Shown piece after piece: positions 161-40,156 of a DNA stretch of 64,000 nucleotides; the stretch's first letter is position 1; each line of letters starts with the position of its first letter. A program made the translations under genes and the position numbers. Below the pieces are notes generated by a model that was not told the origin of the DNA, did not search any database, and saw only the letters and a list, made by a program, of their open reading frames with translations. Source of the stretch: an uncultured Candidatus Rokubacteria bacterium (GTDB taxonomy: Bacteria; Methylomirabilota; Methylomirabilia; Rokubacteriales; DASRDR01); the NCBI GenBank assembly GCA_963826115.1, contig CAWGVS010000007.1, forward strand, positions 96,001 through 160,000. Reading direction: 5' to 3'.

Positions 161-2617
161 ATGAACGAGACCGACATCCGCATCGAGACGAGCCCGGCCC
201 CCGGCGGCGCGGTCCGCCCCGAGACCGGTAAGCCGGACGAGCTGGCCATCTTGCCGCTCCGCGAGACCGTGCTGTTCCCGCAGGCCGTGATCCCGCTCGC
301 GGTCGCGCGGCCGTCCTCTGTCCGCGCAGTGGACGAGGCCGTCCTCGGGCACCGCCTGATCGGCGTGCTCACCCAGCACGACGCCACCCAGGAGACGCCG
401 GCGCCACAGGATCTCCATCGCATGGGGACCGTGGCGACCATCCACCGGATGCTCAAGCAGTCCGACGGGACGATCCGCCTGGTCGTCCAGGGCCTGGAGC
501 GGTTCCGGGTGGTGGAGTTCACCCAGACGACGCCACACCTCCGCGCCCGCATCGAGCGGGTGCCGGACCTCGCGCCGGCCGACGACGACGTGGAGGCGCA
601 GGCGCTCGCCCGCCAGGCGCAGACGCTCTTCCAGCGCATCGTCGAGCTGTCGCCGACCCTGTCGGACGACCTCCTGCCCCTGGTCACCGGCGCGGGCGAC
701 GCGGGCCGGGTGATCGACCTCATCGCGTCGACCCTGCCCTCCCTGACCACGGTGGAGCGGCAGACCCTCCTCGAGACGCCGGACGTCAAGGCGCGGCTCC
801 AGGCGCTGGTCGAGTCGCTCACGAAGGAAGCCGAGGTCCTCGAGCTCGGATCGAAGATCCACTCGCAGATCCAGAGCGAGATGACGAAGACCCAGCGGGA
901 GTACTACCTGCGCGAGCAGATGAAGGCGATCCAGAAGGAGCTGGGCGAGGGCGACGAGCGGGGCCAGGAGCTCACCGAGCTCCGCGAGAAGATCGAGGCG
1001 GCCGGCATGTCCGAGGAGGCGCACCGGGAGGCGCTCCGCGAGCTGGACCGGCTCACGAAGATGCCGCCAGCGGCCGCCGAGTACTCGGTCGCCCGAACGT
1101 ACCTCGAGTGGCTCGTGGCCCTGCCGTGGCGCAAGGAAACCCCGGACGACATCGACCTCGCCCGGGCCCGCGCGGTCCTCGACGAGGACCACTGGGGCCT
1201 CGGCAAGATCAAGGAGCGCCTGCTGGAGCACCTGGCGGTCCGCAAGATCCGGCCGGAGGGAAAGGCGCCGATCCTCTGCTTCGTGGGCCCGCCGGGCGTG
1301 GGCAAGACCTCGCTCGGCCGCTCGATCGCGCGGGCCCTCGGGCGGAAGTTCCACCGCATCGCCCTCGGTGGCATGCGGGACGAGGCCGAGATCCGCGGGC
1401 ACCGGCGGACGTACATCGGCGCCCTGCCCGGGCAGATCGTCCAGGGCCTCCGGCGCGCCGAGTCGAAGAATCCGGTGTTCATGCTGGACGAGATCGACAA
1501 GCTCGGCTTCGACTTCCGGGGCGACCCGGCGTCGGCGCTCCTCGAGGTGCTGGATCCGGAGCAGAACTCGACGTTCCGGGACCACTACCTGGACGTGCCG
1601 TTCGATCTCTCGCGGGTGCTGTTCGTCACGACCGCGAACCTGCTCGACCCGGTCCCGGCGCCGCTCCGCGACCGGATGGAGATCATCGAGCTGCCCGGCT
1701 ACACGGAGGACGAGAAGGTCGAGATCGCCCGGCGTCACCTGGCGCCGAAGCAGGCCGGCGAGCACGGTCTCGTCCTCGACCGCGACGTCGTGCTGACCGA
1801 GCCTGCGCTCCGGCTCATCGCGCGGAGCTACACGCGCGAGGCGGGCGTGCGGAGCCTCGAGCGTGAGATCGCGGCCATCTGCCGGAAGATCGCGCGTCGC
1901 CGGGCCGAGGGCGACCTCGAACCCGTCACCGTGGACCCCGCGCGGGTGACCGCGCTCCTCGGATCGCCGCGCTTCCTCATCGAGGAGGAGGTCGCCGAGC
2001 GGACGCGCACCGCCGGCGTGGCGGTGGGGCTTGCGTGGACGCCAACCGGCGGCGACGTGTTGTTCGTCGAGGCCTCGCGGATGACGGGGGGCAAGTCGCT
2101 CACCCTCACCGGGCAGCTCGGCGACGTCATGAAGGAGTCCGCCCAGGCGGCGGTCTCGTGGGTCCGTGCCCACGCGGCGGAGCTCGGCATCGCGCCCGAC
2201 TTCTGGATGCGCTCCGACCTCCACCTGCACGTCCCGGCCGGCGCCATCCCGAAGGACGGCCCCTCGGCGGGCGTGACCATGGCAACCGCCCTGGTCTCGC
2301 TCCTCCGGCGTCAGCCGATCCGGCCCGGGCTCGCGATGACGGGCGAGATCACGCTCTCCGGCCGGGTGCTGCCGGTCGGCGGCATCAAGGAGAAGGTCCT
2401 GGCCGCCCACCGAATGGGCCTGACCGCGGTGATCCTGCCCCATCAGAACGAGCGGCAGCTCCTCGAGGACGTCCCGGCGGACGTCCGGGCCCAGCTGGAG
2501 ATCCACCTGGTGCGCAGCGTGGCCGAGGTCTTGCATTTTGCTCTGCCCGATGCGTCGCACTGGAACCCGCTGGACGGGGAGCTGGAGCTCGAGCTGGCCG
2601 GGAAAGGTTCGCTCTGA
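161..2617 (+). CDS. lon: ATP-dependent Lon protease (endopeptidase La)
   Basis: Lon N-domain ([10 protein letters not shown]), Walker [23 protein letters not shown], catalytic PKDGPSAG and GGIKEK. Confidence 0.97.
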
Positions 2618-2636
2618 CGGCAAGATAGCAGTCAGA

Positions 2637-2665
2637 TTGACAGGCCTAGAGGGGCTCCGTAGACT
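2637..2665 (+). promoter_or_regulatory. sigma70-type promoter for the lytic transglycosylase gene
   Basis: TTGACA(2637-2642)-17 nt-TAGACT(2660-2665). Confidence 0.6.
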
Positions 2666-2684
2666 GGCCTCCGGTTACCCAAGC

Positions 2685-3413
2685 ATGGGGCGAATCCTGC
2701 CAGTTTGCGCCAGCCTCCTCGGCCTGGTCGTCACGGCCACCCCCGCCCTCGCCGGCTCCATGTACCGGTTCGAGGACGAGCAGGGGGTGGTCCACTACAC
2801 CAACGTCCCGGGTGACCCCCGCTACGCGTTCGTTCGCAAGGAGGCCGAGCCGCCCACCCCCAAGCCCGCCGCCGAGGTGAGCGGGGGGCTCTCGCAGGGT
2901 CTCCGCACCTACGCCCACGTGATCCGCGCCGCCGCCGAGCGCTACGGCGTGGAGACGCGACTCGTCGAGGCGATCGTACAGGCGGAGTCGGCCGGCAACC
3001 CGACCGCGGTCTCCCCGAAGGGCGCACGCGGGCTGATGCAGCTCATGCCCGAGCGCGCCGCGCTCCTGGGCGTGCGGAACTCCTTCGACCCGCACCAGAA
3101 CGTGGACGGCGGGGTCCGGCACATCCGCGACCTGCTTCAGAACTTCGGCGGGGACGTGACGCTGGCCGTCGCGGCCTACAACGCCGGCGAGGGCGCGGTG
3201 CGGAGCTACGGCGGCGTGCCGCCGTTCGCCGAGACGCGCGAGTACGTCCGGCGCGTGCGCGCCCTCTACGACGGCGGCAGCGCGCTCGCGTCGAAGGCCG
3301 TGGCCCTCGTCACCGCGCCCCAGCGCGTCTACCGCGAGGTGGCCGAGGACGGCACGCTCACCTTCACGAACGTGCCGCCCCGGAGCCCGGCGCCCGGCGC
3401 CGGCCGCTTCTAG
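2685..3413 (+). CDS. Secreted lytic transglycosylase (SLT domain) with DUF4124-like N- and C-terminal segments
   Basis: Signal peptide, YRFEDEQGVVHYTNVP, SLT motifs ESAGNP-AVSPKGARGLMQLMP and AAYNAGEG; start moved to ATG 2685. Confidence 0.9.
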   Translation: MGRILPVCASLLGLVVTATPALAGSMYRFEDEQGVVHYTNVPGDPRYAFVRKEAEPPTPKPAAEVSGGLSQGLRTYAHVIRAAAERYGVETRLVEAIVQAESAGNPTAVSPKGARGLMQLMPERAALLGVRNSFDPHQNVDGGVRHIRDLLQNFGGDVTLAVAAYNAGEGAVRSYGGVPPFAETREYVRRVRALYDGGSALASKAVALVTAPQRVYREVAEDGTLTFTNVPPRSPAPGAGRF

Positions 3414-4929: not shown

Positions 4930-5547
4930 TCAGTTCGGCTCGAGCGTGACGACGCTCGCGCGCGGGTCGATCGTCACAGAGAAGAGCGCGAGGAAGTCCC
5001 GTCCGAGCAGCCCGTCCGCCTGCGGGATGCCCGCATCGTGGGCGACGATGGCCAGGGGGCCCGCGCGCGCGTTGCCCACCTCGACCGAGTCCACCCAGAA
5101 CACCTCCGCGCGCGTCACGCCGGTCACGCCCCTGATCTCCGCTTCCTGCGTCTGGGTTGGGTAGACGCCGAGGCGGGCCAACGCCGCCGGTGCCACCATG
5201 GTCCGGTCAGCCCCCGTGTCCAGGACCAGCGTGACGGGGCCCGCGCCGTTGATCCGAGCGGCGACGACGATCGGCGAGCCCGCGACGAACGGGATGGTGG
5301 TCGAGCCGGACCGCGCCGGCGGCGGCGCAGGTGGTGCCGCGTCGACGGGAGACGTCGCCAGGGCGCGCGCCGCGGCCCGGTAGCGCTCCGGCACGCTCTC
5401 AATACCGGTCGTGTAGTGGACGACACCCTGCTCGTCCACCCAGTGGTAGACCTGCGCCCTCGCGTCCGTGGCGAGGGCGCAGGCCAGGAACACGACGAGG
5501 GTGATCGAGGATCGGGACGAGCGACGACGGCGCCAGCGCCGACTCAC
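4930..5547 (-). CDS. Secreted retropepsin-like aspartyl protease with DUF4124 N-terminal domain
   Basis: Signal peptide, VYHWVDEQGVVHYTT, LVLDTGA catalytic motif, GLLGRDFL. Confidence 0.85.
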   Translation of the reverse strand: MSRRWRRRRSSRSSITLVVFLACALATDARAQVYHWVDEQGVVHYTTGIESVPERYRAAARALATSPVDAAPPAPPPARSGSTTIPFVAGSPIVVAARINGAGPVTLVLDTGADRTMVAPAALARLGVYPTQTQEAEIRGVTGVTRAEVFWVDSVEVGNARAGPLAIVAHDAGIPQADGLLGRDFLALFSVTIDPRASVVTLEPN

Positions 5548-6128: not shown

Positions 6129-7172
6129 TCAGGCGAAGCGCGGCAGGTGGCGGCGGACGAACTGGCCGATGACGCGACGATCGAGCGAGAGGAGGAAGTT
6201 CTGCTCGACCAGACAGGGCGAGTAGCACGCCACGCACCCGTGGCCATGGAGGCGACGCCAGGCGGTCTCGACCCCGTCGGCGACGACGCTCCCCCCCGTG
6301 ATCCGGCCGGCGGTGGCCACGCAGGGATAGGCGGTGCCGTCCGGGTCGATCGACAGGTAGAAGCGCCCGGCCTGGCACTGCGGGCCGTCGCGCCGGCGCG
6401 GGTCGTCAGCGGGTAGCTCGTGCGCCTCGAACCGGTCGCGCGCGTAGTCGCCCCAGCGCATCGCGTAGCGGTACGTGACCTCGGAGAACAGGACGCGCGG
6501 GTTCCGGCGGGCGAGGATCGCGAGGCGGTCGAGGAGCTCGCGGATGGCCTCGTCCTCGGCCTTGAGCGTGGCCGCCTGGTGCCAGAGGTCCGACGCGCCG
6601 CTCCGCATCACGTTCACCGTGACGTGGAGGTCGCGAGCCTCGCAGAACGCCAGCAGCGCGTCGAGGTGCGGCGCCGTCCGGGCCGACATGACCGCGTTCA
6701 GCTTGACGGGGATCCCCGTCGCCCGGGCGGCGGCGAGGGCCCGCTGCACGGCGGCGAACACGCCGGCGCCCCGCTGCGCGTCGTTGGCAGGCCCGGGCGC
6801 GTCGAGGCTCAGGACCAGCGTGTCGAGGCCCCGGATGTCGTCGATCCGCCGGGGGACCATCAGGCCGTTCGAGGTGAGGACGCACGCCATGCCACGCGCG
6901 CGCACGTGGTCGATGATCTCCCCGACGTCGGGCCGGAGGAGGGGCTCGCCGCCGAGGATCCCGACCCGGCGGCAGCCCAGGTCGGCCAGCTGGTCGACCA
7001 CCCCCAGCCACTCGGCGGTGGTCAGCTCCGGCGTGTTCCGGTACGGCGAGCTGCAGTAGAGGCACCGGAGATTGCACCGGTGGGTCAGGTAGAGGCCCGC
7101 CGACAGGAGGGTCGGCGTCCCCCGCCAGTGGGCGGCGAGCACGCGGGCCGCGGTGGTCAGGGTGGTGGTCAC
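6129..7172 (-). CDS. Radical SAM protein with C-terminal twitch/SPASM-like cysteines
   Basis: CNLRCLYC, GGEPLL, CQAGRFYLSIDPDGTAYPC...CVACYSPC; GTG start overlaps upstream TGA. Confidence 0.9.
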   Translation of the reverse strand: MTTTLTTAARVLAAHWRGTPTLLSAGLYLTHRCNLRCLYCSSPYRNTPELTTAEWLGVVDQLADLGCRRVGILGGEPLLRPDVGEIIDHVRARGMACVLTSNGLMVPRRIDDIRGLDTLVLSLDAPGPANDAQRGAGVFAAVQRALAAARATGIPVKLNAVMSARTAPHLDALLAFCEARDLHVTVNVMRSGASDLWHQAATLKAEDEAIRELLDRLAILARRNPRVLFSEVTYRYAMRWGDYARDRFEAHELPADDPRRRDGPQCQAGRFYLSIDPDGTAYPCVATAGRITGGSVVADGVETAWRRLHGHGCVACYSPCLVEQNFLLSLDRRVIGQFVRRHLPRFA

Positions 7173-8257
7173 CGCCCCGCCTGCTCCGGGCGCCGCGCGG
7201 CCTCGCCGCCCGACGGCAGCTCGGCCGACGCCGCCACCGGGCGGCGGGCGAGGTAGCCGCGCCAGAAGTTCGCGAGGACGGCCGGCCGGAGGTCGAAGAT
7301 CGCCCGGTTCTCGTTGAGCCACGTGTTGTAGCAATCGAAACAGGAGTGGTGCTGGGCGTGGCGCCACGCGGTCTCCACGCCGTCGCGGAGCGCGTTCTTC
7401 GGCTTGAAGGTGCCGACGTGGAGGACGCACGGGTAGATGTCGCCGTTCGGCTCCATCTGGAGGAAGTAGCGGCCCGCCGTGCACGGGGAGACCTCGCCCG
7501 GCCGCTCGACCCGCTCGAGCCGGAAGTCGTCCCAGGCAAGCGTGTGGCGGTAGGAGCGCGTGGTGAAGAGCACGGGCTCCCCCGCCTCCTTGGCCGCGAT
7601 GATCTTGGCGAGGATCGCGCGGATCTCGGGGTCCGACGGCAGGTGCGTCGCGGCGCCGGCCCCGTACATCTCCTCGTTGGACTGGAGGATCTGGAAGTTC
7701 ACGGACACGCCGAAGCGCCGAGCGGTGGCGAGGAGCCAGTCGATCTCCCCCGCGCTCTCGCGCGTGATGACGGCGCTCAAGAAGAAATCGAGGCCCTCGC
7801 GGGCGCTGACCTCGATGGCTCGCATCACCCGGCGCCACGACCCCGCGCCACGCTGCCCGTCGTGCGCTGCCTCGCGCCCGTCGATGGAGATCACGAGCTC
7901 GTCGAGCCGGCGCACGGTGTCGATCTTCTGGGGGATGAGGAAGCCGTTGGTCACCATCGCCGCCCGCATCCCCAGACGCCGGACCTCCTCGACCAGCTCG
8001 CCGATGTCCGGGCGCAGGAGCGGCTCGCCGCCGAGGAACTTGACGCGCACCGTCCCCAGCCCGGCGAACTCGGCGAGGAGCGTCCGGTGCTCGGCGGTGG
8101 TGAGCTGCGGGTCCTCGCGGTTGGGCGAGTTGCAGTAGACGCAGCGCGCGTTGCACCCGTTCAGGAGCGAGTACTGGACGAAGAAGGGCCGCGCCCCGCC
8201 GGTGAGTCGCGCGGCGAGGATCTGCGCGCCGATCCCGAGCTTCTGGCCGGGTGTCAC
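7169..8257 (-). CDS. Radical SAM protein with C-terminal twitch/SPASM-like cysteines (paralogue of neighbour)
   Basis: CNARCVYC, GGEPLL, CTAGRYFLQMEPNGDIYPC...CFDC; GTG start overlaps GT2 stop. Confidence 0.9.
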   Translation of the reverse strand: MTPGQKLGIGAQILAARLTGGARPFFVQYSLLNGCNARCVYCNSPNREDPQLTTAEHRTLLAEFAGLGTVRVKFLGGEPLLRPDIGELVEEVRRLGMRAAMVTNGFLIPQKIDTVRRLDELVISIDGREAAHDGQRGAGSWRRVMRAIEVSAREGLDFFLSAVITRESAGEIDWLLATARRFGVSVNFQILQSNEEMYGAGAATHLPSDPEIRAILAKIIAAKEAGEPVLFTTRSYRHTLAWDDFRLERVERPGEVSPCTAGRYFLQMEPNGDIYPCVLHVGTFKPKNALRDGVETAWRHAQHHSCFDCYNTWLNENRAIFDLRPAVLANFWRGYLARRPVAASAELPSGGEAARRPEQAGR

Positions 8258-9432
8258 CGGACGGCCTCGCCGGCGGCGGATCGGCCGGCCACCGCCACCT
8301 TCTCGAACGAGGCCCGCTGCCGCCAGAGCGGCAGGGCAAGCAGGGCCACCACGAGGGTGGGCGCGATCACCCCGGCCAGCGCGAGGAGCGCGGCGGCCTG
8401 TCGGGCCCGACGCGAGATCCAGCAGGCGATGGCGGCCAGGCTCACCGCCCCGCCAAGGGCGAGCCGCCCCGCCGGCGAGGTCATTGCCTCGCCCAGCCCG
8501 GCGAGAGCGAGGCCGGCGGTGACCAGGAGCAGGAGCGGCAGGATCGTCAGGTGGGCGGCGCGCCACAGGAAGACCGTCCGGGCCGCCGGCGTCATGGCGG
8601 CCACCCGGGGCAGGAACCGGAAGACCTCACGCAGGTAGGCGTGCGCGCGGCGAAACTTGTGGCGGACGAGCTCGCCGAGCCGGCGGGGCGAGCGCAGCTC
8701 GGTGACGGCGACCTCGATCAGCTCCACCCGTCGGCCGGCCGCCATCGCCGTGAAGGCCACGTGGAGGTCGTCGGCCACCACGTCGTCGGGCCAGGCGGTC
8801 AGGAGCTCGCGCCGGACCGCGAAGCACGGACCCGCCACCAGGGACGCGCAGCCGAGCCGCCCTTCCCGCCCGCGCAGGTAGTTGCCGAGCCGCCAGTGGA
8901 GGGCCTCGAGCGGATGCGGTCCGGCAGGGGTCACGGGCGCGCCGACCACGCCCACCGCGCGGTCGGCTTCCCCGGCGGCGACCAAGCGTTCGAGGGTCTC
9001 CGCCGGCAGGCGGGCGTCGGCGTCGGTCACGACGACCCAGGGCGCGTCACCGCGGCGCAGGCCGGCGTTCAGCTGGGCCGTCTTGTCGGCCTGCGGGAAC
9101 CGGACGAGCGAGAAGCGTGCATCCCCCACGATCTGCGCCGCGACGAGGGCCGCGGTGCCGTCCGACGAGGCGCCGTCCACGACAAACACGCGCAGCCGGT
9201 CGGGGGGATACCGGAGCTCGAGCAGGTCCCGGAGCTTCCCCTCGATCCAGCCAGCCTCGTTCCGCACCGCCACGATCACGTCGACCCGCGGCCACGTCGC
9301 GGGCCGTGGCGCGGGATCGGCAGCGGACGCGTCGTGCCGGGCGAGCCACGCGAGATACCCGAGGACGAGGCCGCCCTCGAGCAGGACGGTCAGGAGCGCG
9401 AGCCATGCCCAGTCAGGGAGGCTCAGCGCCAC
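8254..9432 (-). CDS. Membrane-bound glycosyltransferase family 2
   Basis: N-terminal TM helix, VIVAVRNE, VVDGASSDGT, TDAD (DxD), ADDL, C-terminal TM helices; GTG start at 9432 inferred. Confidence 0.88.
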   Translation of the reverse strand: MALSLPDWAWLALLTVLLEGGLVLGYLAWLARHDASAADPAPRPATWPRVDVIVAVRNEAGWIEGKLRDLLELRYPPDRLRVFVVDGASSDGTAALVAAQIVGDARFSLVRFPQADKTAQLNAGLRRGDAPWVVVTDADARLPAETLERLVAAGEADRAVGVVGAPVTPAGPHPLEALHWRLGNYLRGREGRLGCASLVAGPCFAVRRELLTAWPDDVVADDLHVAFTAMAAGRRVELIEVAVTELRSPRRLGELVRHKFRRAHAYLREVFRFLPRVAAMTPAARTVFLWRAAHLTILPLLLLVTAGLALAGLGEAMTSPAGRLALGGAVSLAAIACWISRRARQAAALLALAGVIAPTLVVALLALPLWRQRASFEKVAVAGRSAAGEAVR

Positions 9433-9556
9433 GCGCGCCTCACCGAGCGTCCGCCGTCCGTCGTCACGGACCGAACTGGCATCGCCGCTCCTCGTGTCGA
9501 GATCGCCGCGAACCGCCCACGGGCACCGCGCCGCCGCGTTCCGGGAAGCCTGGCGG

Positions 9557-9586
9557 AGTGTAGCGTGGGCCGACGCGTCCCGGCAA
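9557..9586 (-). promoter_or_regulatory. sigma70-type promoter for the GT2-radical SAM operon
   Basis: Minus strand TTGCCG-18 nt-TACACT. Confidence 0.55.
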
Positions 9587-9609
9587 GCGGCGAGCGAACT
9601 CCGCCACGA

Positions 9610-9725
9610 CGGCGGGCCGAGGCTGCGGCAGGCGAGCACCTCGGTCAGGTGCTCCAGGCCGATCGCGACGGCGCCCGCCAGGTCCGCGATCGCCCGCGCG
9701 AACCTTCAGCACGCGATCGCGCGCG
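9610..9725 (-). pseudogene. Decayed duplicate of the comM 3' end
   Basis: Minus strand reads DRVLKV/(frameshift)ARAIADLAGAVAIGLEHLTEVLACRSL versus ComM C-terminus DRVLKVARTIADLADADAIGVEHLAEALAYRTL; the DNA aligns with ~12177-12295. Confidence 0.85.
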
Positions 9726-9914
9726 GATCCGCGACCCGACACCGACCCACCGGGCGGATATGACGGCCTACGGCCGCCCTGAGCGGGCGATCGGGAGCCT
9801 TAGGACGTGCGGCCGTGACTGACGGTGCGCGACGGCGCCGGGCGTACCCTTCCCAGGGCGGCGCAGTCTGACCGCGCGCAACTCCCCGCGCGGAAGGTCC
9901 CCTCCAGCCTGAGA

Positions 9915-11960
9915 CTAGGACGCTGGAGTCCAGGAGTTGCCGGGCCGGCACGCTGCCGGATCCGCACTCTCGGGCGCGTCCGAGAAGGTAGCCGTCATTG
10001 CCGAGATTCTCCGCGAATCGGCCGCGCTGATGGTGCGGTTCCCCTGGATTGACTCGAGCCGACCACCGGCGAGCCGCAGACCACAGAGATCCTCGTACCC
10101 GACCAAACGCCGGGTCGAGCCTTGAAACTCGACGTACTCGATCCGGGCGTTCACGCGAGCCGCATCGCTCGGCTTGTACACCGTGACTCGCCACGACCAC
10201 TTCCAGTCCGGCTGACGCCGATCGACGACTCCGAAGCGGATTGCGACGACTTCAATGGGGGAGGTGCTCGATTCCTGCCTCGCCGAGACCTTCCCGACGA
10301 TCGGAGGCGTTCGGTCGGACGACACCACGGGCCAGCCGAGGAGGCCGGCCCCGATCAATACCATGGCAAGCCCAGTCGCGAATCCTCCCACGGCGGTCAT
10401 CGGGGTCCGCCACGCGCCCCATCGCTCGTGGCCAAACTGGCGCTGGGTCGACGCGGCGACGGCCATGCCGAGAACGACCGCGGCGCGGCCCGGGCTGCCA
10501 AGATATCCCGCCCATGTCTGGCGCGCGGGAGTCAGACCGCTCGCCGCGCGGACCAAGCGCCGTCGGCGCGTCCCGACCACGCCGGCGCCCAGCGTGGCCA
10601 TGGCCTGGCCCGTGTCGCGCAGACGAACCGCCGCTCGCGACGCGCTGGTCAGCGCGCTGAGCGCGCCTCGCCCCGCCGCCTGCAGCCCGTGCCGACTCCT
10701 CGCCACCACCGCACCGCCCAGCGTGCTCGCCCCGCGGCCCGCGCGCTCGAGTCCTGCCACCCCCGCCCGCGCCGCCCCGCTCACCCCGCTCAGCACGCCT
10801 CGCCCCGCCGCCTGCAGCCCGTGCCGACTCCTCGCCGCCGCCGCGCCGCCCAGCGTGCTCGCCCCGCGGCCCGCGCGCTCGAGTCCTGCCACCCCCGCCC
10901 GCGCCGCCCCGCTCACCCCGCTCAGCACGCCTCGCCCCGCCGCCTGCAGCCCGCGCCCACTCGCCACCACCGCACCGCCCAGCGTGCTCGCCCCGCGGCC
11001 CGCGCGCTCGAGTCCTGCCACCCCCGCCCGCGCCGCCCCGCTCACCCCGCTCAGCACGCCTCGCCCCGCCGCCTGCAGCCCGTGCCGACTCCTCGCCACC
11101 GCCGCGGCGCCCAGCGTGCTCGCCCCGCGGCCCGCGCGCTCGAGTCCTGCCACCCCCGCCCGCGCCGCCCCGCTCACCCCGCTCAGCACGCCTCGCCCCG
11201 CCGCCTGCAGCCCGTGCCGACTCCTCGCCGCCGCGGCGACGCCCAGGGTAGCTAGGCCGTGGACCGGGCCGCTCAGGCCTACCGCGGCGTGGGGCACGCG
11301 GGCCAGCCCCTCGAACGCTCGACGGCCCGCCTGGCGCACCTGACGCTGGTTGACCACGGCCCCGAGAATGTGCCCATGCACCGCCTCGAGCTGCTCCGTG
11401 GCGCGACGGACCACGAACTGCGGCACCTTGCCGCCTATCACGAGAAGAATGCCGTCGACCACCGGCGCCAGCGTCGTGGCATCGCTCGCCGCCAGAACCG
11501 GAGGGGAGTCCAGAAGGACCACATCGTATTGCTCGGTCACGGCCTGGAGCAGCTCGCGCATGCGCCGAGAGAACAGGAGATCCGAGGGATTGCCCGCGAA
11601 GGGTCCGCTGGGGATGACGGAGAGGTTGGGGACCGACGTCCGCGCCACGACCGTCTCGAGCTCGGCTGTGCCCGCGAGGTAGGACGATAGTCCGACAGCA
11701 CTAGGCACCTGCAATAGCGTGTGAAGGACCGGGCGTCGGAGGTCGGCGTCCACGAGCAGCACGCGGCACTCGGCTTGGGCCAGCGAGATCCCGAGGTTGG
11801 CCGTGACGCTGGACTTGCCGGCGCCCACTTCCGCGCTGGTGACCAGCACGCTGCGCGGCGTCGGCATCGCGTGGTGGAGGTAGTTCCGCAGCATTCGATA
11901 GGCCTCCGCGGCCGATGACCGCGGATCGTCCAGCAACACGGGTCGAGGAGTATGTGGCAT
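9915..11960 (-). CDS. CpsD/CapB-type bacterial tyrosine kinase domain fused to tandem repeats, a TM helix and a C-terminal domain
   Basis: AEAYRMLR, Walker A TSAEVGAGKS, A' VDADLRRP, Walker B LLDSPP; then 44-aa repeats and the hydrophobic FATGLAMVLIGAGLLGW. Confidence 0.85.
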   Translation of the reverse strand: MPHTPRPVLLDDPRSSAAEAYRMLRNYLHHAMPTPRSVLVTSAEVGAGKSSVTANLGISLAQAECRVLLVDADLRRPVLHTLLQVPSAVGLSSYLAGTAELETVVARTSVPNLSVIPSGPFAGNPSDLLFSRRMRELLQAVTEQYDVVLLDSPPVLAASDATTLAPVVDGILLVIGGKVPQFVVRRATEQLEAVHGHILGAVVNQRQVRQAGRRAFEGLARVPHAAVGLSGPVHGLATLGVAAAARSRHGLQAAGRGVLSGVSGAARAGVAGLERAGRGASTLGAAAVARSRHGLQAAGRGVLSGVSGAARAGVAGLERAGRGASTLGGAVVASGRGLQAAGRGVLSGVSGAARAGVAGLERAGRGASTLGGAAAARSRHGLQAAGRGVLSGVSGAARAGVAGLERAGRGASTLGGAVVARSRHGLQAAGRGALSALTSASRAAVRLRDTGQAMATLGAGVVGTRRRRLVRAASGLTPARQTWAGYLGSPGRAAVVLGMAVAASTQRQFGHERWGAWRTPMTAVGGFATGLAMVLIGAGLLGWPVVSSDRTPPIVGKVSARQESSTSPIEVVAIRFGVVDRRQPDWKWSWRVTVYKPSDAARVNARIEYVEFQGSTRRLVGYEDLCGLRLAGGRLESIQGNRTISAADSRRISAMTATFSDAPESADPAACRPGNSWTPAS
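10656..11246 (-). repeat. In-frame coding tandem repeat, ~4.5 copies of a 132-bp unit (one copy 129 bp)
   Basis: TGCAGCCC anchor at 10681, 10813, 10945, 11074, 11206; the unit encodes GLQAAGRGVLSGVSGAARAGVAGLERAGRGASTLGxAxxARSRH. Confidence 0.95.
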
Positions 11961-12168
11961 CGTCACATCGATTCCCACTTCGACTTCCGGTCGGCAGGAA
12001 TGAATTGCAAACGCGACGAAGACAACCGAGGCGCGGACCCCGCGCCCTACGAACCTCGGCGCCTTTCTGCGGCACCTCCCCGGGCCAGCCCGTCCTGGCC
12101 CACCGCCTGACTATAGGCCGATCGGATCGGAGCGGCAATAGCTCGCCGGCGGGCCGGCGCCCCTGCAT

Positions 12169-18132: not shown

Positions 18133-18855
18133 ATGTACGGCGGGTTCCGCGTGATTGCGATGGCGCCGATGCTCGACGAGGCGCGGAAGATCGGCAGCGT
18201 CGTGGCCCGGACCCCGCGCCCGCTCGTGGATGAAGTACTCGCCATCGACGATGGCTCCCGGGACGCCTCCGCCGAGGTGGCTCGGGCCGGCGGTGCCCGG
18301 GTGCTGCCACTCGGACGGACGGTCGGCGTCGGGGCCGCGCTCCGGGCGGGCTTCCGCTACGCCGTCGACGCCGGCTTCGACATCGTCGTCGTGATGGCCG
18401 GCAACAACAAGGACTCGCCGGAGGAGATCTCGCTCTTGCTGGATCCGATCGTCGAGGGTCGGGCGGACTTCGTCCAAGGCTCCCGGTTCCGCAAGGTCAA
18501 TCCTGACTTCGGGGAGATGCCCTTCTACCGACGGGTTGCGACGCGCGTCCATCCCCGGCTGTTCTCGCTCGTGGCGCGCCGCCGGGTGACCGACTCGACC
18601 AACGGCTTTCGGGCCATCCACCGTCGGCTTCTCACGGATCCACGTCTCGACCTGGCGCAACCGTGGCTCGACCAGTACGAGCTGGAGCCCTATCTCTACC
18701 TCCGCGCCATCCAGCTCGGCTACCGGACCGTGGAGGTTCCCGTCACCAAGCGATACGGAAGCCGGGCCCTCGGCCAGACCAAGATGCCGCCGGTGGTCGG
18801 CTGGTGGTCGATCCTCTCCCCCATCGTGTACCTGGGACTTGGTCTCAAGCGATGA
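18133..18855 (+). CDS. Glycosyltransferase family 2 (polyprenol-phosphate glycosyltransferase/DPM1-like)
   Basis: IDDGSRD, GVGAALRAG, ADFVQGSRF, TDSTNGFRA; the DxD position reads MAGNNKD. Confidence 0.85.
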   Translation: MYGGFRVIAMAPMLDEARKIGSVVARTPRPLVDEVLAIDDGSRDASAEVARAGGARVLPLGRTVGVGAALRAGFRYAVDAGFDIVVVMAGNNKDSPEEISLLLDPIVEGRADFVQGSRFRKVNPDFGEMPFYRRVATRVHPRLFSLVARRRVTDSTNGFRAIHRRLLTDPRLDLAQPWLDQYELEPYLYLRAIQLGYRTVEVPVTKRYGSRALGQTKMPPVVGWWSILSPIVYLGLGLKR

Positions 18856-19871
18856 TCCGCGTGGCCGTGGCCGGCGCCGGCCACTGGGGTCCCAATTTCG
18901 TCCGAAACTTCCAGAGCCCGCCGCGTGCCGAGGTGCGCTGGGTCGTGGACCACGATCCGGCCCGGCTCGCGGAGGTCCAGGCGCGCTTCCCGGGCATCCG
19001 CCTGGATCGTGACCTCGGGCGGGCACTGGCGGACCCGGAGGTGGACGCGGTCGTCGTGGCAACCCCGACCGCCACGCACTTCCCCCTCGCGTGCGCGGCG
19101 CTGGAGGCCGGGAAGCACGTGCTCGTCGAGAAGCCGATCGCGACGACCATGCGCCAGGCAGAGGCGCTCGTCGAGCTGGCCGACCGGAACCGGCGGGTGC
19201 TGCTGGTGGGCCACGTCTTCCTCTACAACGAGGGAGTGCGACGGGTGAAGCAGTACATCGACGAGAACGCCCTCGGGCGCGTCTACTACATCTCCATGGT
19301 GCGGACGAACCTGGGACCCATCCGCCCCGATGTCAACGCCGCCTGGGACCTGGGATCTCACGACGTCTCCATCGCGTACTACTGGCTGGGCCAGCTCCCC
19401 GTCAGCGTGACGGCGGTTGGGGGCACGTGGATCAACCTCGGCCTCGAGGATGCGGTGTTCGCGACGCTCCGGTATCCCGACGGTGTGCTGGTGAACCTCC
19501 ATCTCTCCTGGCTGAATCCCCGCAAGGTGCGGGACGTGACCGTGGTCGGCGAGAAACAGATGCTCACGCTGGACGACATGAACCTCACTGAACCCATCCG
19601 GCTCTACGACAAGCGCGTCGCCGGTGAGCAGGCTCACCCAGGCTACGTCGACACCTTCGCGCAGTTCCGTGCTAGCGTGCGCGACGGCGACATCACGATC
19701 CCCAAGGTGTCGCTCGGCGAGCCGTTGCGTAACGAGTGCGACGACTTCCTAGGCTGCATCGAGAGCGGCCGGCGCCCGGTCGCAGGGGGAGCCGTGGGGA
19801 CCGCGGTCGTGCGAACCCTGGAGGCGATCGCCCGCTCGATGCGGCAGGGTGGCGCGGAGGAGGCCGTGTGA
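18852..19871 (+). CDS. Gfo/Idh/MocA oxidoreductase (WbpB/WlbA-like sugar 3-dehydrogenase)
   Basis: GAGHWG Rossmann motif, GKHVLVEKP, WDLGSHD; ATG 18852 overlaps GT2 stop. Confidence 0.9.
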   Translation: MIRVAVAGAGHWGPNFVRNFQSPPRAEVRWVVDHDPARLAEVQARFPGIRLDRDLGRALADPEVDAVVVATPTATHFPLACAALEAGKHVLVEKPIATTMRQAEALVELADRNRRVLLVGHVFLYNEGVRRVKQYIDENALGRVYYISMVRTNLGPIRPDVNAAWDLGSHDVSIAYYWLGQLPVSVTAVGGTWINLGLEDAVFATLRYPDGVLVNLHLSWLNPRKVRDVTVVGEKQMLTLDDMNLTEPIRLYDKRVAGEQAHPGYVDTFAQFRASVRDGDITIPKVSLGEPLRNECDDFLGCIESGRRPVAGGAVGTAVVRTLEAIARSMRQGGAEEAV

Positions 19872-19873
19872 GC

Positions 19874-20989
19874 ATGTCGAGGGTTCCCCTCTGCGACCTC
19901 GCCGCGCAGCATGAAGAGGTGGCATCGGAGATCCGGGAAGGGTTCGATCGCGTGTTCGGGCGAAGCGCTTTCATCGGTGGACTCGAGGTGGCGGAGTTCG
20001 AGGCCGCGTTCGCCCGGTTCGCAGGTGTCCCGCACTGCGTCGGAGTCGGCAACGGAACCGATGCGCTGGAGCTCGCCCTGCGCGCCGTCGACGTGCGCCC
20101 CGGCGACGACGTGCTTCTGCCCGCGAACACGTTCGTGGCGACCGCGATGGCGGTCGTGCGCTGCGGGGCCCGCCCGGTTCTGGCCGATGTCGATCCGGAC
20201 CATCTCTTGCTGGACGTGGCCAAGGCAGCGGCGCGGATCACTCCGGCAACCCGCGCCATCGTTCCCGTTCACCTCTTCGGCCAGCTCGCTCCCATGGAGC
20301 ACGTGCTCGCCCTGGCCCGGACGCGAGACCTCGTCGTGGTCGAGGATGCCGCCCAGGTGCACGGTGCCCGCCGCAACGGGCTGCACGCCGGCCAGTTCGG
20401 CGCCGCGGCCTCGACGAGCTTCTATCCGGGGAAGAACCTCGGCGCCGCCGGCGATGCCGGCGCCGTCCTCACGACGTCCGACCAGGTGGCCGCCCGGATT
20501 CGGGCGATCCGCAATCACGGGGGGGAGCGGTCGTACGAGCACGACGTGCTCGGGTTCAACTCGCGACTGGACACGTTGCAGGCGATCGTGCTGTCGGCCA
20601 AGCTCGCGCACCTCGCCCGGTGGAATAACTGCCGACGCGAAGCGGCCCAGCGCTACGACGCCCTCCTCGAGGAGCTGCCGGAGGTGGTGCGCCCCCGGAT
20701 ACTCGCGGGCAACGAGCACGTCTTCCACCTCTACGTCATCCGGCTGCCCCGCCGGGACCGAGTTCTCGCGCGTCTCGAGGCGGCCGGAGTGGGCGCGAAG
20801 GTGCACTACCCGACGCCTCTTCACCTGGTCCCCGCGCTCCGCGGGCTCGGGTACGCGCGGGGCGATTTTCCGGTCAGCGAGCGCGCGGCTCAGGAGATGA
20901 TCTCGTTGCCGATCTACCCTCACATCACGCCGCGGCAACAGGAGCACGTGGTCAGCGTCCTGCGGCGCGCTCTGGGCGAGCCAGTCTGA
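19874..20989 (+). CDS. DegT/DnrJ/EryC1/StrS PLP-dependent sugar aminotransferase
   Basis: GNGTDAL, PVHLFGQ, EDAAQ, SFYPGKNLGAAGDAG, NSRLDTLQA. Confidence 0.93.
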   Translation: MSRVPLCDLAAQHEEVASEIREGFDRVFGRSAFIGGLEVAEFEAAFARFAGVPHCVGVGNGTDALELALRAVDVRPGDDVLLPANTFVATAMAVVRCGARPVLADVDPDHLLLDVAKAAARITPATRAIVPVHLFGQLAPMEHVLALARTRDLVVVEDAAQVHGARRNGLHAGQFGAAASTSFYPGKNLGAAGDAGAVLTTSDQVAARIRAIRNHGGERSYEHDVLGFNSRLDTLQAIVLSAKLAHLARWNNCRREAAQRYDALLEELPEVVRPRILAGNEHVFHLYVIRLPRRDRVLARLEAAGVGAKVHYPTPLHLVPALRGLGYARGDFPVSERAAQEMISLPIYPHITPRQQEHVVSVLRRALGEPV

Positions 20990-21066
20990 CACCGATGCGC
21001 CCGCGGGCGAACGGGGCTCGTGCTTCGAGTCGGCGCTCCAGTCTCGCGCGGGCGCGCCGCTCGTCA

Positions 21067-21729
21067 GTGGCCGCCCCGTCGACCGCACGGTCGCTGTTCG
21101 TGCATCCCCAGGCGCTCTGCGAGAGCAAGGACGTCGGTCCGGGTACGCGGGTGTGGGCGTTCGCCCACGTCATGGCGGGTGCCCGCGTGGGAGCGGGCTG
21201 CAACCTCGGCGACCACGTGTTCGTGGAAACGGGAGCGTGGATCGGCGACCGGGTGACGGTCAAGAACCAAGTCCTCGTGTGGGACCGGGTCACGCTGGAG
21301 GATGAGGTGTTCGTCGGCCCGGGCGTCGTCTTCACGAACGATCTGCGGCCGCGCGTGCGCTTTCGGACGCCTCCGGAGGATTTCCTGCCCACCCGGGTCG
21401 AGCGGGGTGCGTCGATTGGCGCGAATGCCACGATTCGGTGCGGGGTGACGGTGGGGGCGAACGCGTTCGTGGCGGCCGGCGGGGTGGTGATCCGCGACGT
21501 TCCGCCCCACGCCCTCGTGGCGGGCAACCCCGCCCGCCAGATCGGTTGGGTGTGCGAGTGCGCCGAGCGGCTCGGGTCGGGTCTCGCGTGCCGCTGCGGC
21601 CGGCGGTACCGGCCCGCGGCGGCCGGCGTGGCCGGCCTCGTCCTCGACGGCCGAGGTGCCGGGCGGTCCGTGCGGCGGCGCGCCGGCGGCAGGCGTGGGA
21701 ACCGGAGAGAGGCCGGCCCGCCACCTTGA
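21067..21729 (+). CDS. Hexapeptide-repeat sugar N-acyltransferase (WbpD/WxcM-like)
   Basis: FVHPQALCE..VG.GTRVWAFAHV, VFTND, GASIGANATI, GNPARQIGWVCEC; start uncertain (20995 or 21067). Confidence 0.88.
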   Translation: MAAPSTARSLFVHPQALCESKDVGPGTRVWAFAHVMAGARVGAGCNLGDHVFVETGAWIGDRVTVKNQVLVWDRVTLEDEVFVGPGVVFTNDLRPRVRFRTPPEDFLPTRVERGASIGANATIRCGVTVGANAFVAAGGVVIRDVPPHALVAGNPARQIGWVCECAERLGSGLACRCGRRYRPAAAGVAGLVLDGRGAGRSVRRRAGGRRGNRREAGPPP

Positions 21730-32785: not shown

Positions 32786-33655
32786 TCACTTCCGCCCGCC
32801 CTGGGCCTTCTTCTCGACGCGCTCGGGCCTGGCGGTGGCGGCGGGGCGCTCGACCTTGGCGGGCGGCTTCTTGCCGGGCGCCGGCTTCCGGGCCAGGCTC
32901 TCCTTGAGCGCGTCCATCAGATCGATCACCTGGGCGCGTTGCGTCTCGGGCCCGGTCGCCGTGACTTCCCGGCCTTCGACCTTCTGCTCCACGGTGGCCA
33001 GGACGCGCTGCCGGTACTCGTCCTCGTACTGCGCGGGGGCGAACTCGTCGTGCGAGAGCTCGTCGACCAGGCGGACCGCCAGGTCGAGCTCCCCCTCCCG
33101 GATCTTTGCGGACTGGCCCTTGTCGATCTCGGCGAAGCTCCGGACCTCGTCGGCGAAGTACATCGTGTGGAGCATGAGCCCGCCCTGGGCGGGGCGGATC
33201 AGGACAAGGCTCTCCTTGCCGCGCATCACGAACTTGGCGAGCGCGACGCGGTCGGTCTTGGCCATCGCGTCGGTCAGGAGCCGGTAGGCTTTCTCGCCGC
33301 CCTTGTCCGGCCCGAGGTAGTAGGTCTTCTCGAAGTAGATCGGGTCGACCTTGGCGAGCGGGACGAACTCCGCGATGTCGATGACCTTGGAGGCCTCCCC
33401 TTCCAGCGCCTTCAGCTCCTCGTCGGTGAAGCGGACGTACTCGTCCTTCTGGACCTCGTAGCCCTTGACGAGAGCCGTCCGGTCCACGACCTCGTGGTCG
33501 ACGGGGCAGTAGGTCTGCTGGCGGATCCGGCTCCCGCATTTGGCGTGGAGGAGGTTGAAGCTCACGCTCGCCGACGAGGCGGCGGTGTAGAGGCGGATCG
33601 GAATGGAGACCAGCCCGAAGGAGATCGTCCCCGACCCGATCGAATGCGGTGGCAT
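32786..33655 (-). CDS. ku: Non-homologous end joining protein Ku
   Basis: GTISFGLVSIPIRLY, VKGYE, IYFEKTYYL, VIDLMDALKESL, basic tail; ATG 33655. Confidence 0.96.
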   Translation of the reverse strand: MPPHSIGSGTISFGLVSIPIRLYTAASSASVSFNLLHAKCGSRIRQQTYCPVDHEVVDRTALVKGYEVQKDEYVRFTDEELKALEGEASKVIDIAEFVPLAKVDPIYFEKTYYLGPDKGGEKAYRLLTDAMAKTDRVALAKFVMRGKESLVLIRPAQGGLMLHTMYFADEVRSFAEIDKGQSAKIREGELDLAVRLVDELSHDEFAPAQYEDEYRQRVLATVEQKVEGREVTATGPETQRAQVIDLMDALKESLARKPAPGKKPPAKVERPAATARPERVEKKAQGGRK

Positions 33656-33789
33656 TGCGCGCCCTCCCGGCCCGGAACTGTCGACGTGATGAAGCATTTT
33701 GCACCGTATCACGGGGCCCGCTATGCTTCAAAGCGCCCCCGGGACGCCCCACCACTTGGGGTCGCCGCGCGGGCGAGGGCCAGCCCCTA

Positions 33790-39265: not shown

Positions 39266-39981
39266 GGCGCGTCCTCGCGGTAGCGGTAGCCGAGCCCGTG
39301 CACGGTGTCGATCGCTTCGAATGTGGGGTCGACCTCGGCGAACTTGGCGCGGATCCGCTTGACGTGCGAGTCGACGGTCCGCTCGCTGACGTAGGCGTCG
39401 TGGGGATACCCCTGCTCGAGGAGCTGCTTCCGCGAGCGCACGTGGCCCGGCCGGCGCGCGAGGGCGGCCACGATCAGGAACTCGGTGACGGTCAGCGCGA
39501 CGACCACGTCCTTCCAGCGCGCCAGGTGCCGGTCGAAGTCGAGCGTGAGGGAGCCGAGGGTGACCGCGTTGGCCGCCGGCCGCTCGTCCGGGTGCCGGCC
39601 GAGCGCCGCGCGGCGGAACAGGACGCGGACCCGGGCCACCAGCTCCCGTACCGAGAACGGCTTGCAGAGGTAGTCGTCCGCGCCGAGCTCGAGCCCGAGG
39701 ATCCGGTCGAGCTCCTCGTCGCGCGACGTGAGGAAGATGATCGGGAGCGCGGCGCTCCGGACGCGGAGCCGGCGGCAGAGCTCGAGCCCGTCGACGCGCG
39801 GCATCAGGATGTCGAGCACCACGAGGTCCGGCAGGCGGTGCTCGAAGGCCTCCCAGGCGAGCGCGCCGTCGGCGTAGGCCTCCACCTGGTAGCCCTCGCG
39901 CTGGAGCGCGAACCCCACCGTCTCGCGGATCGACTGCTCGTCGTCCACCACGGCGACCCGCCCCTTCTCCCCCGTCGGCAT
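39262..39981 (-). CDS. OmpR-family response regulator, ChvI/PdsR-like
   Basis: VVDDE, LDILMP, FLTSRDEE, GADDYLCKPF, LTVTEF, RTVDSHVKRIR, GLGYRY. Confidence 0.93.
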   Translation of the reverse strand: MPTGEKGRVAVVDDEQSIRETVGFALQREGYQVEAYADGALAWEAFEHRLPDLVVLDILMPRVDGLELCRRLRVRSAALPIIFLTSRDEELDRILGLELGADDYLCKPFSVRELVARVRVLFRRAALGRHPDERPAANAVTLGSLTLDFDRHLARWKDVVVALTVTEFLIVAALARRPGHVRSRKQLLEQGYPHDAYVSERTVDSHVKRIRAKFAEVDPTFEAIDTVHGLGYRYREDAP

Positions 39982-39988
39982 GGGAGCC

Positions 39989-40018
39989 AGCATGGGACGG
40001 CGCTCGTTCGGGCGTCAA
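39989..40018 (-). promoter_or_regulatory. sigma70 promoter giving a probably leaderless response-regulator mRNA
   Basis: Minus strand TTGACG-18 nt-CATGCT-7 nt-ATG(39981). Confidence 0.55.
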
Positions 40019-40029
40019 GGAAACTCCCT

Positions 40030-40056
40030 GCCACAGCGCCGCCACAATTCGCCACG
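40030..40056 (+). promoter_or_regulatory. Tandem GCCAC(A/G) direct repeats, candidate OmpR/ChvI-type binding site
   Basis: GCCACA at 40030, GCCACA at 40041, GCCACG at 40051 (10-11 bp phasing) in the divergent intergenic region. Confidence 0.55.
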
Positions 40057-40156
40057 AACGTTCCCCGACCGCGCCCCGGTGGCGCCACGGGCGTCCGCTA
40101 CAACCAGCCGAGAGCACGGGCGTCTCCCGAACCCCTCGCACTCATGGAGGTGCGTC

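Follow-up and report, generated by a model that had tools for sequence, protein, structure and literature searches.

We describe a protein, P0001, encoded on the minus strand of a 64,000-nucleotide (nt) window from contig CAWGVS010000007.1 of an uncultured Candidatus Rokubacteria bacterium, whose predicted layout appears distinct from those of the described bacterial tyrosine kinases (BY-kinases). An N-terminal BY-kinase-like catalytic domain with an intact site is followed by amphipathic repeats in the place of the usual tyrosine tail, a single transmembrane (TM) helix and an orphan outer domain, and no activator domain was found. As set out in the relevant passages of three papers (PMC12004946, PMC9800525, PMC4007543), the kinase domain of a BY-kinase either follows a two-TM activator domain (Wzc) or stands alone beside a separate activator (CapA/CapB), and both layouts end in a C-terminal tyrosine tail. 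Our literature search, which was not exhaustive, found no description of a BY-kinase that combines an N-terminal catalytic domain with a C-terminal TM anchor. The best overall explanation, which we hold with moderate confidence, is that P0001 is a single-pass, N-in/C-out member of the BY-kinase family that is anchored C-terminally to its catalytic domain and operates as a tail-less scaffold or trans-kinase with a membrane leash. P0001 would then represent a third BY-kinase layout, with the anchor placed behind the kinase, a variable and probably membrane-seeking repeat where the tail would be, and an intact catalytic site. A preliminary description of the window had proposed a P-loop kinase that is tethered to the membrane and bears an amphipathic repeat, and the sequence comparisons presented here support that structural reading. 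The features of P0001, from the N-terminus to the C-terminus, are as follows.

9915..11978, minus strand: whole open reading frame (ORF), GTG start at 11978, 687 amino acids (aa), stop codon at 9915-9917
11334..11933, minus strand: BY-kinase catalytic domain, residues 16-215 (TIGR01007; Pfam AAA_31/ParA/CbiA; Etk 3cio, CapB 4jlv)
11886..11906, minus strand: EAYRMLR (E25, R28, R31), aligned to the ring-interface residues E23, R26 and R29 of CapB helix alpha2
11811..11834, minus strand: Walker A, AEVGAGKS (K55), from structure alignment
11733..11762, minus strand: Walker A', VLLVDADLRR (D77, D79, R81), from structure alignment
11499..11522, minus strand: extended Walker B, VVLLDSPP (D157, P159, P160), from structure alignment
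11214..11333, minus strand: the 40 aa after the kinase domain, usual site of the Tyr cluster, with 0 Tyr
10539..11333, minus strand: Ala/Gly/Arg-rich amphipathic repeat region, residues 216-480 (~265 aa), from composition, autocorrelation and spectra
10627..11246, minus strand: DNA tandem array (Tandem Repeats Finder: 132 nt, or 44 aa; 4.7 copies; 93% matches)
10401..10538, minus strand: juxtamembrane segment, residues 481-526, including Y492, which is shared with P0003 only
10323..10400, minus strand: predicted single TM helix, residues 527-552 (MTAVGGFATGLAMVLIGAGLLGWPVV); Kyte-Doolittle peak 1.96; helix 524-546 in AlphaFold2 (AF2)
10254..10322, minus strand: short linker, residues 553-575; the linker of relatives is much longer and Pro/Ala-rich
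9918..10253, minus strand: conserved C-terminal domain (C-domain), residues 576-687 (~112 aa), modelled as a six-strand beta-sandwich, with C632 (10083-10085) and C677 (9948-9950)

The ORF is a real gene. Its frame stays open for 687 codons in a window of 70-77% G+C, and the G+C content of the three codon positions follows the order GC3 > GC1 > GC2 in 13 of the 13 blocks of 50 codons tested, which cover residues 1-650 and hence the repeat, the TM helix and most of the C-terminal part. Apart from the GTG at 11978, an alternative ATG start lies at 11960 (M7), the one adopted in the preliminary description, and the database gene call begins at M29 to give 659 aa. This last start is probably too short, since it would cut into the conserved EAYRxLR helix. 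Comparison with homologues, which keep the same order of domains, indicates that the domain order is genuine and not the product of read-through. Indeed, the earlier concern that homologues might end right after the kinase was not borne out, because the proteins sharing the C-domain retain the order, 11 of the 14 retrieved with the C-terminal part having a P-loop domain at the N-terminus.

Searching with the C-terminal part, or with a profile of it, in three length ranges yielded 14, 25 and 14 proteins, among which no distant relatives of the C-domain were found, and defined a family of 39 clusters with C-domains 54-82% identical to that of P0001. Within the search for longer proteins, the P-loop domain is present in 11 of 25, many of the others being fragments from contigs of ~1-3 kb, and an intact form of 827 aa occurs on at least four contigs. 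Across 185,579 species, each represented by one genome, there was a single matching locus, L001 (7884-10354, plus strand), in the metagenome-assembled genome of an uncultured Candidatus Rokubacteria bacterium. The gene at L001 has the layout of P0001 but is split by a frameshift located in the linker that follows the TM helix. This is probably an assembly error, since four other contigs carry the 827-aa version intact. Frameshifts inside the GC-rich repeats are also seen in the database relatives P0017, P0020 and P0036.

In P0015, P0168 and P0169, the TM helix, linker and C-domain are found behind a Cys/His-rich head instead of a kinase, and P0168 adds a 47-aa repeat. These heads display recurring H-x-C-P-x-C...W-x-H motifs and returned nothing significant from Pfam, and JGI, the source of one cluster member, names it a Zn-ribbon protein. 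Since the same TM-linker-C-domain part stands behind either kind of head, it appears from these sequences to behave as a module that accepts different cytoplasmic heads.

The kinase head and the tyrosine tail

The head of P0001 (residues 25-215) scores 152 bits against TIGR01007 (polysaccharide biosynthesis tyrosine autokinase) and thereby exceeds the curated cut-off of 108.05, whereas Pfam reports only generic P-loop families of the ParA/CbiA/AAA_31 type. The models of Wzc, EpsG and the XrtA-associated kinase align to P0001 across their kinase parts only. Among solved structures, the best match to the head is Etk (3cio, E 4.8e-33), with CapB (4jlv, E 5.3e-32) and CapB chimeras (E 5e-32 to 1e-30) close by; BceF, Wzc and VpsO are also among the top matches, those to Etk, CapB, BceF and Wzc ranging from E 5e-33 to 2e-26, and MinD-type structures are located lower down, at E 1e-11 to 1e-12.

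Alignment to Etk and CapB, with the BY-kinase motifs as defined in the pertinent sections of PMC2422856 and PMC4007543, reveals the presence of Walker A, Walker A' (DxD) and extended Walker B (hhhhDxPP), in agreement with the preliminary description of an N-terminal kinase domain in which all three motifs are intact. In the structure alignments, K55, D77, D79, R81, D157 and P159-P160 coincide with the same-numbered residues of CapB, for which the corresponding part of PMC2422856 gives the roles of P-loop lysine, catalytic DxD, interface arginine, and DxPP with its prolines sandwiching the substrate tyrosine. The set of residues forming the ring interface of CapB (E23, R26, R29, R81 and E133) is matched by E25, R28, R31 and R81, with a conservative change of E133 to D133. 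In our own mapping, Val84 of P0001 takes the position of the internal regulatory tyrosine of Etk (Y574). Overall, the head looks like a competent catalytic domain of the Firmicutes-type, CapB-like kind. Prediction of a two-copy complex of residues 1-230 returned a score of 0.00 (mark 0.42), which is no evidence either way.

The catalytic domain of P0001 is placed at the N-terminus, as in CapB of the CapB/CapA pair from Staphylococcus aureus (stand-alone, Firmicutes-type, polysaccharide co-polymerase (PCP) class PCP-2b). Unlike CapB, P0001 has no C-terminal Tyr cluster, and no CapA-type activator was found in cis or in the window. Moreover, the anchor and the outer domain of P0001 continue the same chain behind the kinase instead of belonging to a second protein, which would dock ahead of it. 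With Wzc/Etk (PCP-2a, Proteobacteria-type) P0001 has in common a membrane anchor, a cytoplasmic BY-kinase and an extracytoplasmic domain. However, P0001 lacks both the Wzz domain and the Tyr cluster, and whereas the kinase of Wzc is preceded by two TM helices and a periplasmic domain that is large and helical, P0001 has one TM helix and a small beta-sandwich after it.

The kinase domain of P0001 ends shortly after GAVVN (residues 206-210), and the following 40 aa contain none of the eight tyrosines of the protein (27, 33, 100, 151, 492, 601, 615 and 628). For comparison, we considered 136 relatives from outside the family, obtained by a search of 1.84 billion proteins, in which the end of the kinase is covered. 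At least two tyrosines are present in the same 40 aa of 128 of these 136 proteins and at least three in 118, and the protein ends within 60 aa of the kinase domain in 122. Six of the 136 have no tyrosine there, and in three of the six (P0048, P0084 and P0107) a second P-loop motif occurs within 45 residues. The absence of the tail from P0001 is thus unusual among BY-kinase relatives. We note that P0042, P0048, P0084 and P0107 are BY-kinase relatives with ~260-310 aa beyond the first kinase domain, and that the last three have no tyrosine between this domain and the second P-loop motif.

The preliminary description had listed the lack of a Tyr cluster as a property of this architecture, which is correct for P0001 itself but not for the family as a whole. 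In P0012, P0013 and P0014, RDYDYSKRYY directly follows GAVVN and precedes the repeats, the TM helix and the C-domain, which is the same. Outside the family, the closest relatives are stand-alone kinases of ~245 aa with Tyr clusters, P0018 (58% identity) and P0023. Because the cluster is present both in these and in P0012-P0014, we infer that the tail was lost secondarily, the anchor having been joined to a stand-alone kinase before the cluster disappeared in the branch leading to P0001.

BY-kinase-like proteins without a tyrosine tail are, as such, already known. The portions of PMC12004946 and PMC9800525 dealing with EcpK (Myxococcus xanthus), GumC (Xanthomonas) and HfsB (Caulobacter) ascribe to them a BY-kinase-like fold that lacks a phosphorylatable tyrosine tail, and propose that their mode of action is scaffolding or oligomerisation and not a phosphorylation cycle. 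In these accounts, EcpK is soluble, has lost catalytic residues and docks on the PCP protein EpsV (PMC12004946), and GumC is without a Y-cluster (PMC9800525). P0001 resembles all three in having the fold without the tail. By contrast with EcpK-like pseudokinases, which have lost both the catalytic residues and the tail, P0001 retains K55, D77, D79 and D157; it also has an anchor of its own, and no PCP partner was found in the window. Because the usual tail, which drives a cycle of assembly and disassembly in the described BY-kinases, is missing, P0001 probably differs in function from the textbook capsule kinases.

The amphipathic repeats, membrane anchor and outer domain

The region between the kinase and the juxtamembrane segment (residues 216-480) is composed of 25% Ala, 22% Gly and 14% Arg, with 2% Asp plus Glu and no Lys. 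It had been described as ~200 aa of repeats with a 22-residue periodicity; repeats are indeed present, but they span ~265 aa and the unit is 44 aa. BLOSUM autocorrelation in P0001 amounts to 1.54 at lag 44 and 0.32 at lag 22, as against -0.37 +/- 0.13 for the null, and lag 11 gives no signal. The half-period of 22 is real but weak in P0001, similar in P0003 and near null in the other members. The autocorrelation peaks at lags 43-44, or at twice these values (83-88), in eight of nine members tested and at 47 in P0168. Family lengths extend from 551 to 827 aa, and P0012 and P0013 (551 aa) differ from P0014 (594 aa) by one 43-aa unit, such that, judged from near-identical alleles, the copy number varies by whole units. 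The repeat region has no Pfam hit at E <= 1 and no usable Atlas match. A hidden Markov model (HMM) built from the four units of P0001 matched strongly in P0001 and P0003, with isolated weak matches in five other proteins (domain E 0.003 or worse), and, being too narrow, was replaced by autocorrelation and spectra.

In seven of eight members, the power spectrum of hydrophobicity over the inter-domain region is dominated by a peak at 99-100.5 degrees, with a power of 8-27 as against a shuffled maximum of 3.5-4.5, and none of 300 shuffles attains the observed value. This peak lies near the 98.2 degrees of 11 residues per three turns (44 residues corresponding to 12 turns) and off the 102.9 degrees of a heptad coiled coil. 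On the helix of P0001, the hydrophobic quadrant comprises 13 Leu, 12 Val, 22 Ala, 15 Gly and 1 Arg, which is half of the Leu (13/26) and almost none of the Arg (1/37) in the repeats, and the opposite quadrant comprises 18 Arg and no Leu. The mean hydrophobic moment is moderate (0.25-0.30), lying 6-9 standard deviations (SD) above shuffles in four of five members. We suggest that the repeats probably constitute a long 11/3-type amphipathic helix that forms on a surface; the Arg face would be suited to anionic lipid, making membrane binding plausible. The amphipathic character claimed in the preliminary description is therefore borne out by the spectral peak and the opposed Leu/Val and Arg faces, whereas the 11-residue signal is absent and membrane binding stays at the level of the plausible.

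Repeats based on 11-mers form the amphipathic helices of apolipoprotein A-I, alpha-synuclein and perilipin, and MinD has a C-terminal helix that targets it to the membrane. The repeat of P0001 resembles the former in being a multiple of 11 (44 = 4 x 11) with a hydrophobic face that stays in phase at ~99 degrees. It shares no sequence relationship with them, however, and differs in having a polar face made almost exclusively of Arg and a hydrophobic face with much Ala and Gly. The likeness to MinD lies in the succession of a P-loop ATPase and a helix predicted to seek the membrane. Two other interpretations of the repeats were entertained. An RGG-motif reading of AGRG/RAGRG was dropped because relatives have GAGRA or HAGDRA at those positions, and an alpha-solenoid (HEAT/TPR-like) reading of the 44-aa unit is less likely, since the hydrophobic phase runs on unbroken through the borders between units.

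Outside the kinase core, one segment of P0001 exceeds the Kyte-Doolittle threshold, residues 527-552, and overlaps the AF2 helix at 524-546, consistent with the single TM helix noted previously. G536 and V540 within it are nearly invariant in the family. Since the head contains neither a signal peptide nor another TM segment and requires ATP, the topology would be N-in/C-out, with the C-domain positioned on the extracytoplasmic side. Anchoring after the kinase appears to be rare but not unique, because the metagenomic protein P0070 offers an independent precedent. In P0070, as in P0001, a TM helix and an outer domain come after the BY-kinase domain, the outer domain of P0070 being made of repeats. 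P0070 differs from P0001 in retaining a TM segment of the Wzz type N-terminal to its kinase and, with 6 Tyr in 40 aa, a Tyr cluster; it has no amphipathic repeat, and its outer part is unrelated.

The C-domain was expected to be beta-rich, with two cysteines and a length of ~130 aa; the strands and the cysteines (C632 and C677) were recovered, and the length is ~112 aa. A separate AF2 model of residues 576-667, based on an alignment of 18 sequences, adopts a six-strand beta-sandwich with a predicted local distance difference test score (pLDDT) of 87.6 and a predicted template-modelling score (pTM) of 0.76. Across ten family sequences, 34 columns of the C-domain are invariant, C632 and C677 included, and because both cysteines are invariant they would probably be joined by a disulfide in an oxidising compartment. 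Foldseek comparison of the C-domain with the PDB returned no hits at E <= 0.001, and residues 553-687 have no Pfam or NCBIfam hit, their best Atlas score being 0.85, to unnamed clusters. According to the model, the outer domain is an orphan immunoglobulin (Ig)-like beta-sandwich without a significant relative in sequence or structure.

Proposed mechanism and competing explanations

In the explanation that we favour, the head of P0001 would bind ATP and oligomerise like other BY-kinases but, because its own tyrosine tail is missing, would not undergo a cycle of autophosphorylation and dissociation, so that it would either provide a scaffold that depends on ATP or phosphorylate other proteins, resembling EcpK and GumC. 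The repeats would fold as a long 11/3-type helix that lays its Leu/Val/Ala face on the cytoplasmic leaflet and directs its Arg face to the anionic head groups, thereby providing a leash along the membrane surface that is lengthened or shortened by whole units. On the other side of the membrane, the outer domain, probably disulfide-bonded, would touch a periplasmic partner or a glycan. The process served is probably the control of envelope glycan synthesis, which may be carried out by neighbouring genes, such as that for a membrane glycosyltransferase of family 2 (GT2).

A number of observations weigh against this explanation. As regards the repeats, the peak of P0009 at 98.5 degrees ranks only second and the z-score of its hydrophobic moment is only 2.2-2.5; the shuffle tests overstate significance in general, because repeat units are not independent of each other. 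The repeats contain 16-22% Gly and have a moment of only 0.25-0.30, and in the full-length AF2 model (mean pLDDT 42), which we used for hints of secondary structure only, the long helices over residues 216-520 have a pLDDT of ~30. As regards the outer domain, its best Foldseek matches are generic Ig-like sandwiches, namely ApaG, the Ig-like domains of glycoside hydrolase family 2 (GH2) enzymes (TMq 0.51-0.53) and carbohydrate-binding module family 21 (CBM21), which offer no clue to a ligand. As regards the head, all catalytic and tyrosine-binding residues are intact, unlike in EcpK, so an active kinase fits at least as well as a pure scaffold, and no CapA/Wzz-type activator is found in cis or in the window, which CapB-type kinases require according to the passage on activation in PMC12004946. 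As regards the glycan role, the gap between P0001 and the GT2 gene is at least ~275 nt, which makes an operon link no more than a possibility, and the window has no neighbour in common with L001 except the gene itself, so the context is not conserved. A role in glycan synthesis would then follow from the habit of the family and loose proximity rather than from conserved context.

The alternatives differ in how much of the architecture they accept. That P0001 is an artefact, be it read-through, misassembly over the tandem repeat or a decaying pseudogene, is extremely improbable and already largely refuted: although its GC3 (0.84) is a little below that of many neighbouring genes and several database relatives (P0017, P0020, P0036 and L001) are frameshifted within or after the repeats, the 687 open codons, the coding G+C pattern in each 50-codon block, the maintenance of the order and sequence of all parts across independent contigs and the 54-82% identity of the C-domain over 39 clusters all argue for a real gene. 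It is also very unlikely that the head, instead of being a kinase, is a positioning ATPase of the MinD/ParA type, with the Arg-rich repeats binding the membrane or the nucleoid surface. Such an ATPase could be accommodated by the Pfam names, which are solely of the ParA/CbiA/AAA_31 type, by the MinD structures that align further down the list and by the membrane-binding C-terminal amphipathic helix of MinD, but the scores for minD_arch (62.6, cut-off 201.75), minD_bact (43.8, cut-off 212.9) and ParA_partition (26.4, cut-off 180) are far from what these models demand, whereas the BY-kinase model TIGR01007 exceeds its own cut-off, the DxD and DxPP motifs specific to BY-kinases are present and the closest relatives, P0018 and P0023, are stand-alone BY-kinases with Tyr clusters. 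The same architecture with the repeats held off the membrane, either as a disordered spacer of variable length or as a helical stalk or bundle that distances the kinase ring from the membrane, is unlikely in our estimation. The glycine content and low pLDDT mentioned above would suit a spacer, as would copy numbers that differ between close alleles, and a hydrophobic face consisting mostly of Ala and Gly would suit tight packing of helices; however, the amphipathic phase is coherent for 100-400 residues at ~99 degrees and not at the heptad value, and the polar face, nearly all Arg with few acidic residues, fits an anionic surface better than a soluble bundle.

Two further readings concern signalling. 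P0001 could be a receptor-type tyrosine kinase, in which the Ig-like domain senses a periplasmic ligand or partner and the clustered heads act in trans on other proteins, such as sugar dehydrogenases or glycosyltransferases, and phosphorylate these instead of their own tail. This we regard as doubtful. The integrity of the catalytic residues, including the equivalents of R82, P159 and P160 that sandwich the tyrosine, the extreme conservation of the outer domain, with its 34 invariant columns in ten sequences, and the Cys/His-rich heads that P0015, P0168 and P0169 bear on the same repeat-TM-outer-domain module, as expected of a sensor or anchor module, are all compatible with a receptor. Set against these, the 55 ORFs scanned contain no Pfam hit to a Tyr phosphatase, the analysis turned up no substrate or ligand, the fold search gives generic beta-sandwiches only and no activator fragment was found in the window. 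We consider it rather improbable that the Rokubacteria-type phylum has a modular family of single-pass signalling proteins, made up of an Ig-like sensor, a variable leash and interchangeable heads (BY-kinase or Cys/His zinc-ribbon-like), whose kinase form would be the counterpart of a receptor tyrosine kinase driven to cluster by its ligand. If so, it would amount to a receptor-tyrosine-kinase-like design made from a P-loop kinase in reversed chain order, without the Wzc-type autophosphorylation cycle.

If characterised, the family could show whether a BY-kinase head can dispense with a tyrosine tail of its own and with a Wzz-type activator, which target an orphan yet strongly conserved periplasmic domain recognises, and whether a bacterial 11/3-type amphipathic repeat serves as a tether to the membrane surface. 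Its practical weight is limited, the family being small and found in uncultured bacteria only.

Gene surroundings

The following features lie around P0001.

12029..12047, minus strand: terminator-like hairpin between a ComM/YifB-type gene and the start of P0001 (promoter/terminator scan)
8254..9639, minus strand: downstream membrane GT2 glycosyltransferase, four hydrophobic segments, weak NodC/PgaC/HpnB-like matches
6129-8566, minus strand: two adjacent radical-SAM genes after the GT2 gene, weak SPASM-type, mycofactocin/PqqE/MoaA-like matches below cut-off
18663-21729, plus strand: GFO/IDH/MocA oxidoreductase, DegT aminotransferase and hexapeptide acetyltransferase in a row, part of a divergent upstream cluster

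Upstream of P0001 on the minus strand is a ComM/YifB-type Mg-chelatase-like gene followed by the hairpin, the presence of which suggests that P0001 is not read through from the upstream gene; the scan around P0001 detected nothing else. Downstream, the membrane GT2 is, by its position only, a possible functional partner. The spacer at ~9430-9915, between the stop codon of P0001 and the GT2 gene, is unusually long, and the scan found no terminator-like site in it. The first ~70 codons of the GT2 ORF that begins at 9639 look non-coding, so that the true start may be near 9430.

The divergent upstream cluster further encodes a PMT_2/EpsG-like (GT-C-like) membrane protein with eight hydrophobic segments, a member of the fatty-acid-hydroxylase family and a GT2 of the polyprenyl-phosphate-sugar type. 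The oxidoreductase, aminotransferase and acetyltransferase trio is the usual set for the synthesis of acetamido sugar nucleotides. A PhyH-family dioxygenase and an NTP_transf_5 gene come after this trio. At L001, the genes within 5 kb include a GT2-GtrA gene and polytopic membrane proteins.

The statement of the preliminary description that no wza, wzz or wzb partner is adjacent agrees with the lack of any hit to the corresponding Pfam families (Poly_export, Wzz and LMWPc) in the 55 window ORFs scanned, yet glycan genes are nonetheless nearby in the form of the GT2 and the sugar-modification cluster. P0001 itself has no Pfam hit to Wzz (PF02706) at E <= 1, and a profile of 35 Wzc N-terminal regions gave no hits against the 491 window ORFs of at least 60 aa. 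Within the window, neither a PCP-2a nor a PCP-2b arrangement was found, in which a two-TM Wzz domain is fused before the kinase or encoded nearby.

Elsewhere in the window, a gene for a VIT/VWA-domain protein of 768 aa overlaps the following sortase-domain gene (39893-42876, plus strand) in what looks like a sortase-substrate pair, and the lineage carrying it is probably diderm. Ku and a full-length LigD with phosphoesterase, ligase and primase-polymerase domains are encoded divergently at 32786-36447 and constitute a non-homologous end joining (NHEJ) pair. Finally, DUF4124 is fused to an SLT lytic transglycosylase at 2538-3413 (plus strand) and to a retropepsin-like aspartyl protease at 4930-5547 (minus strand).

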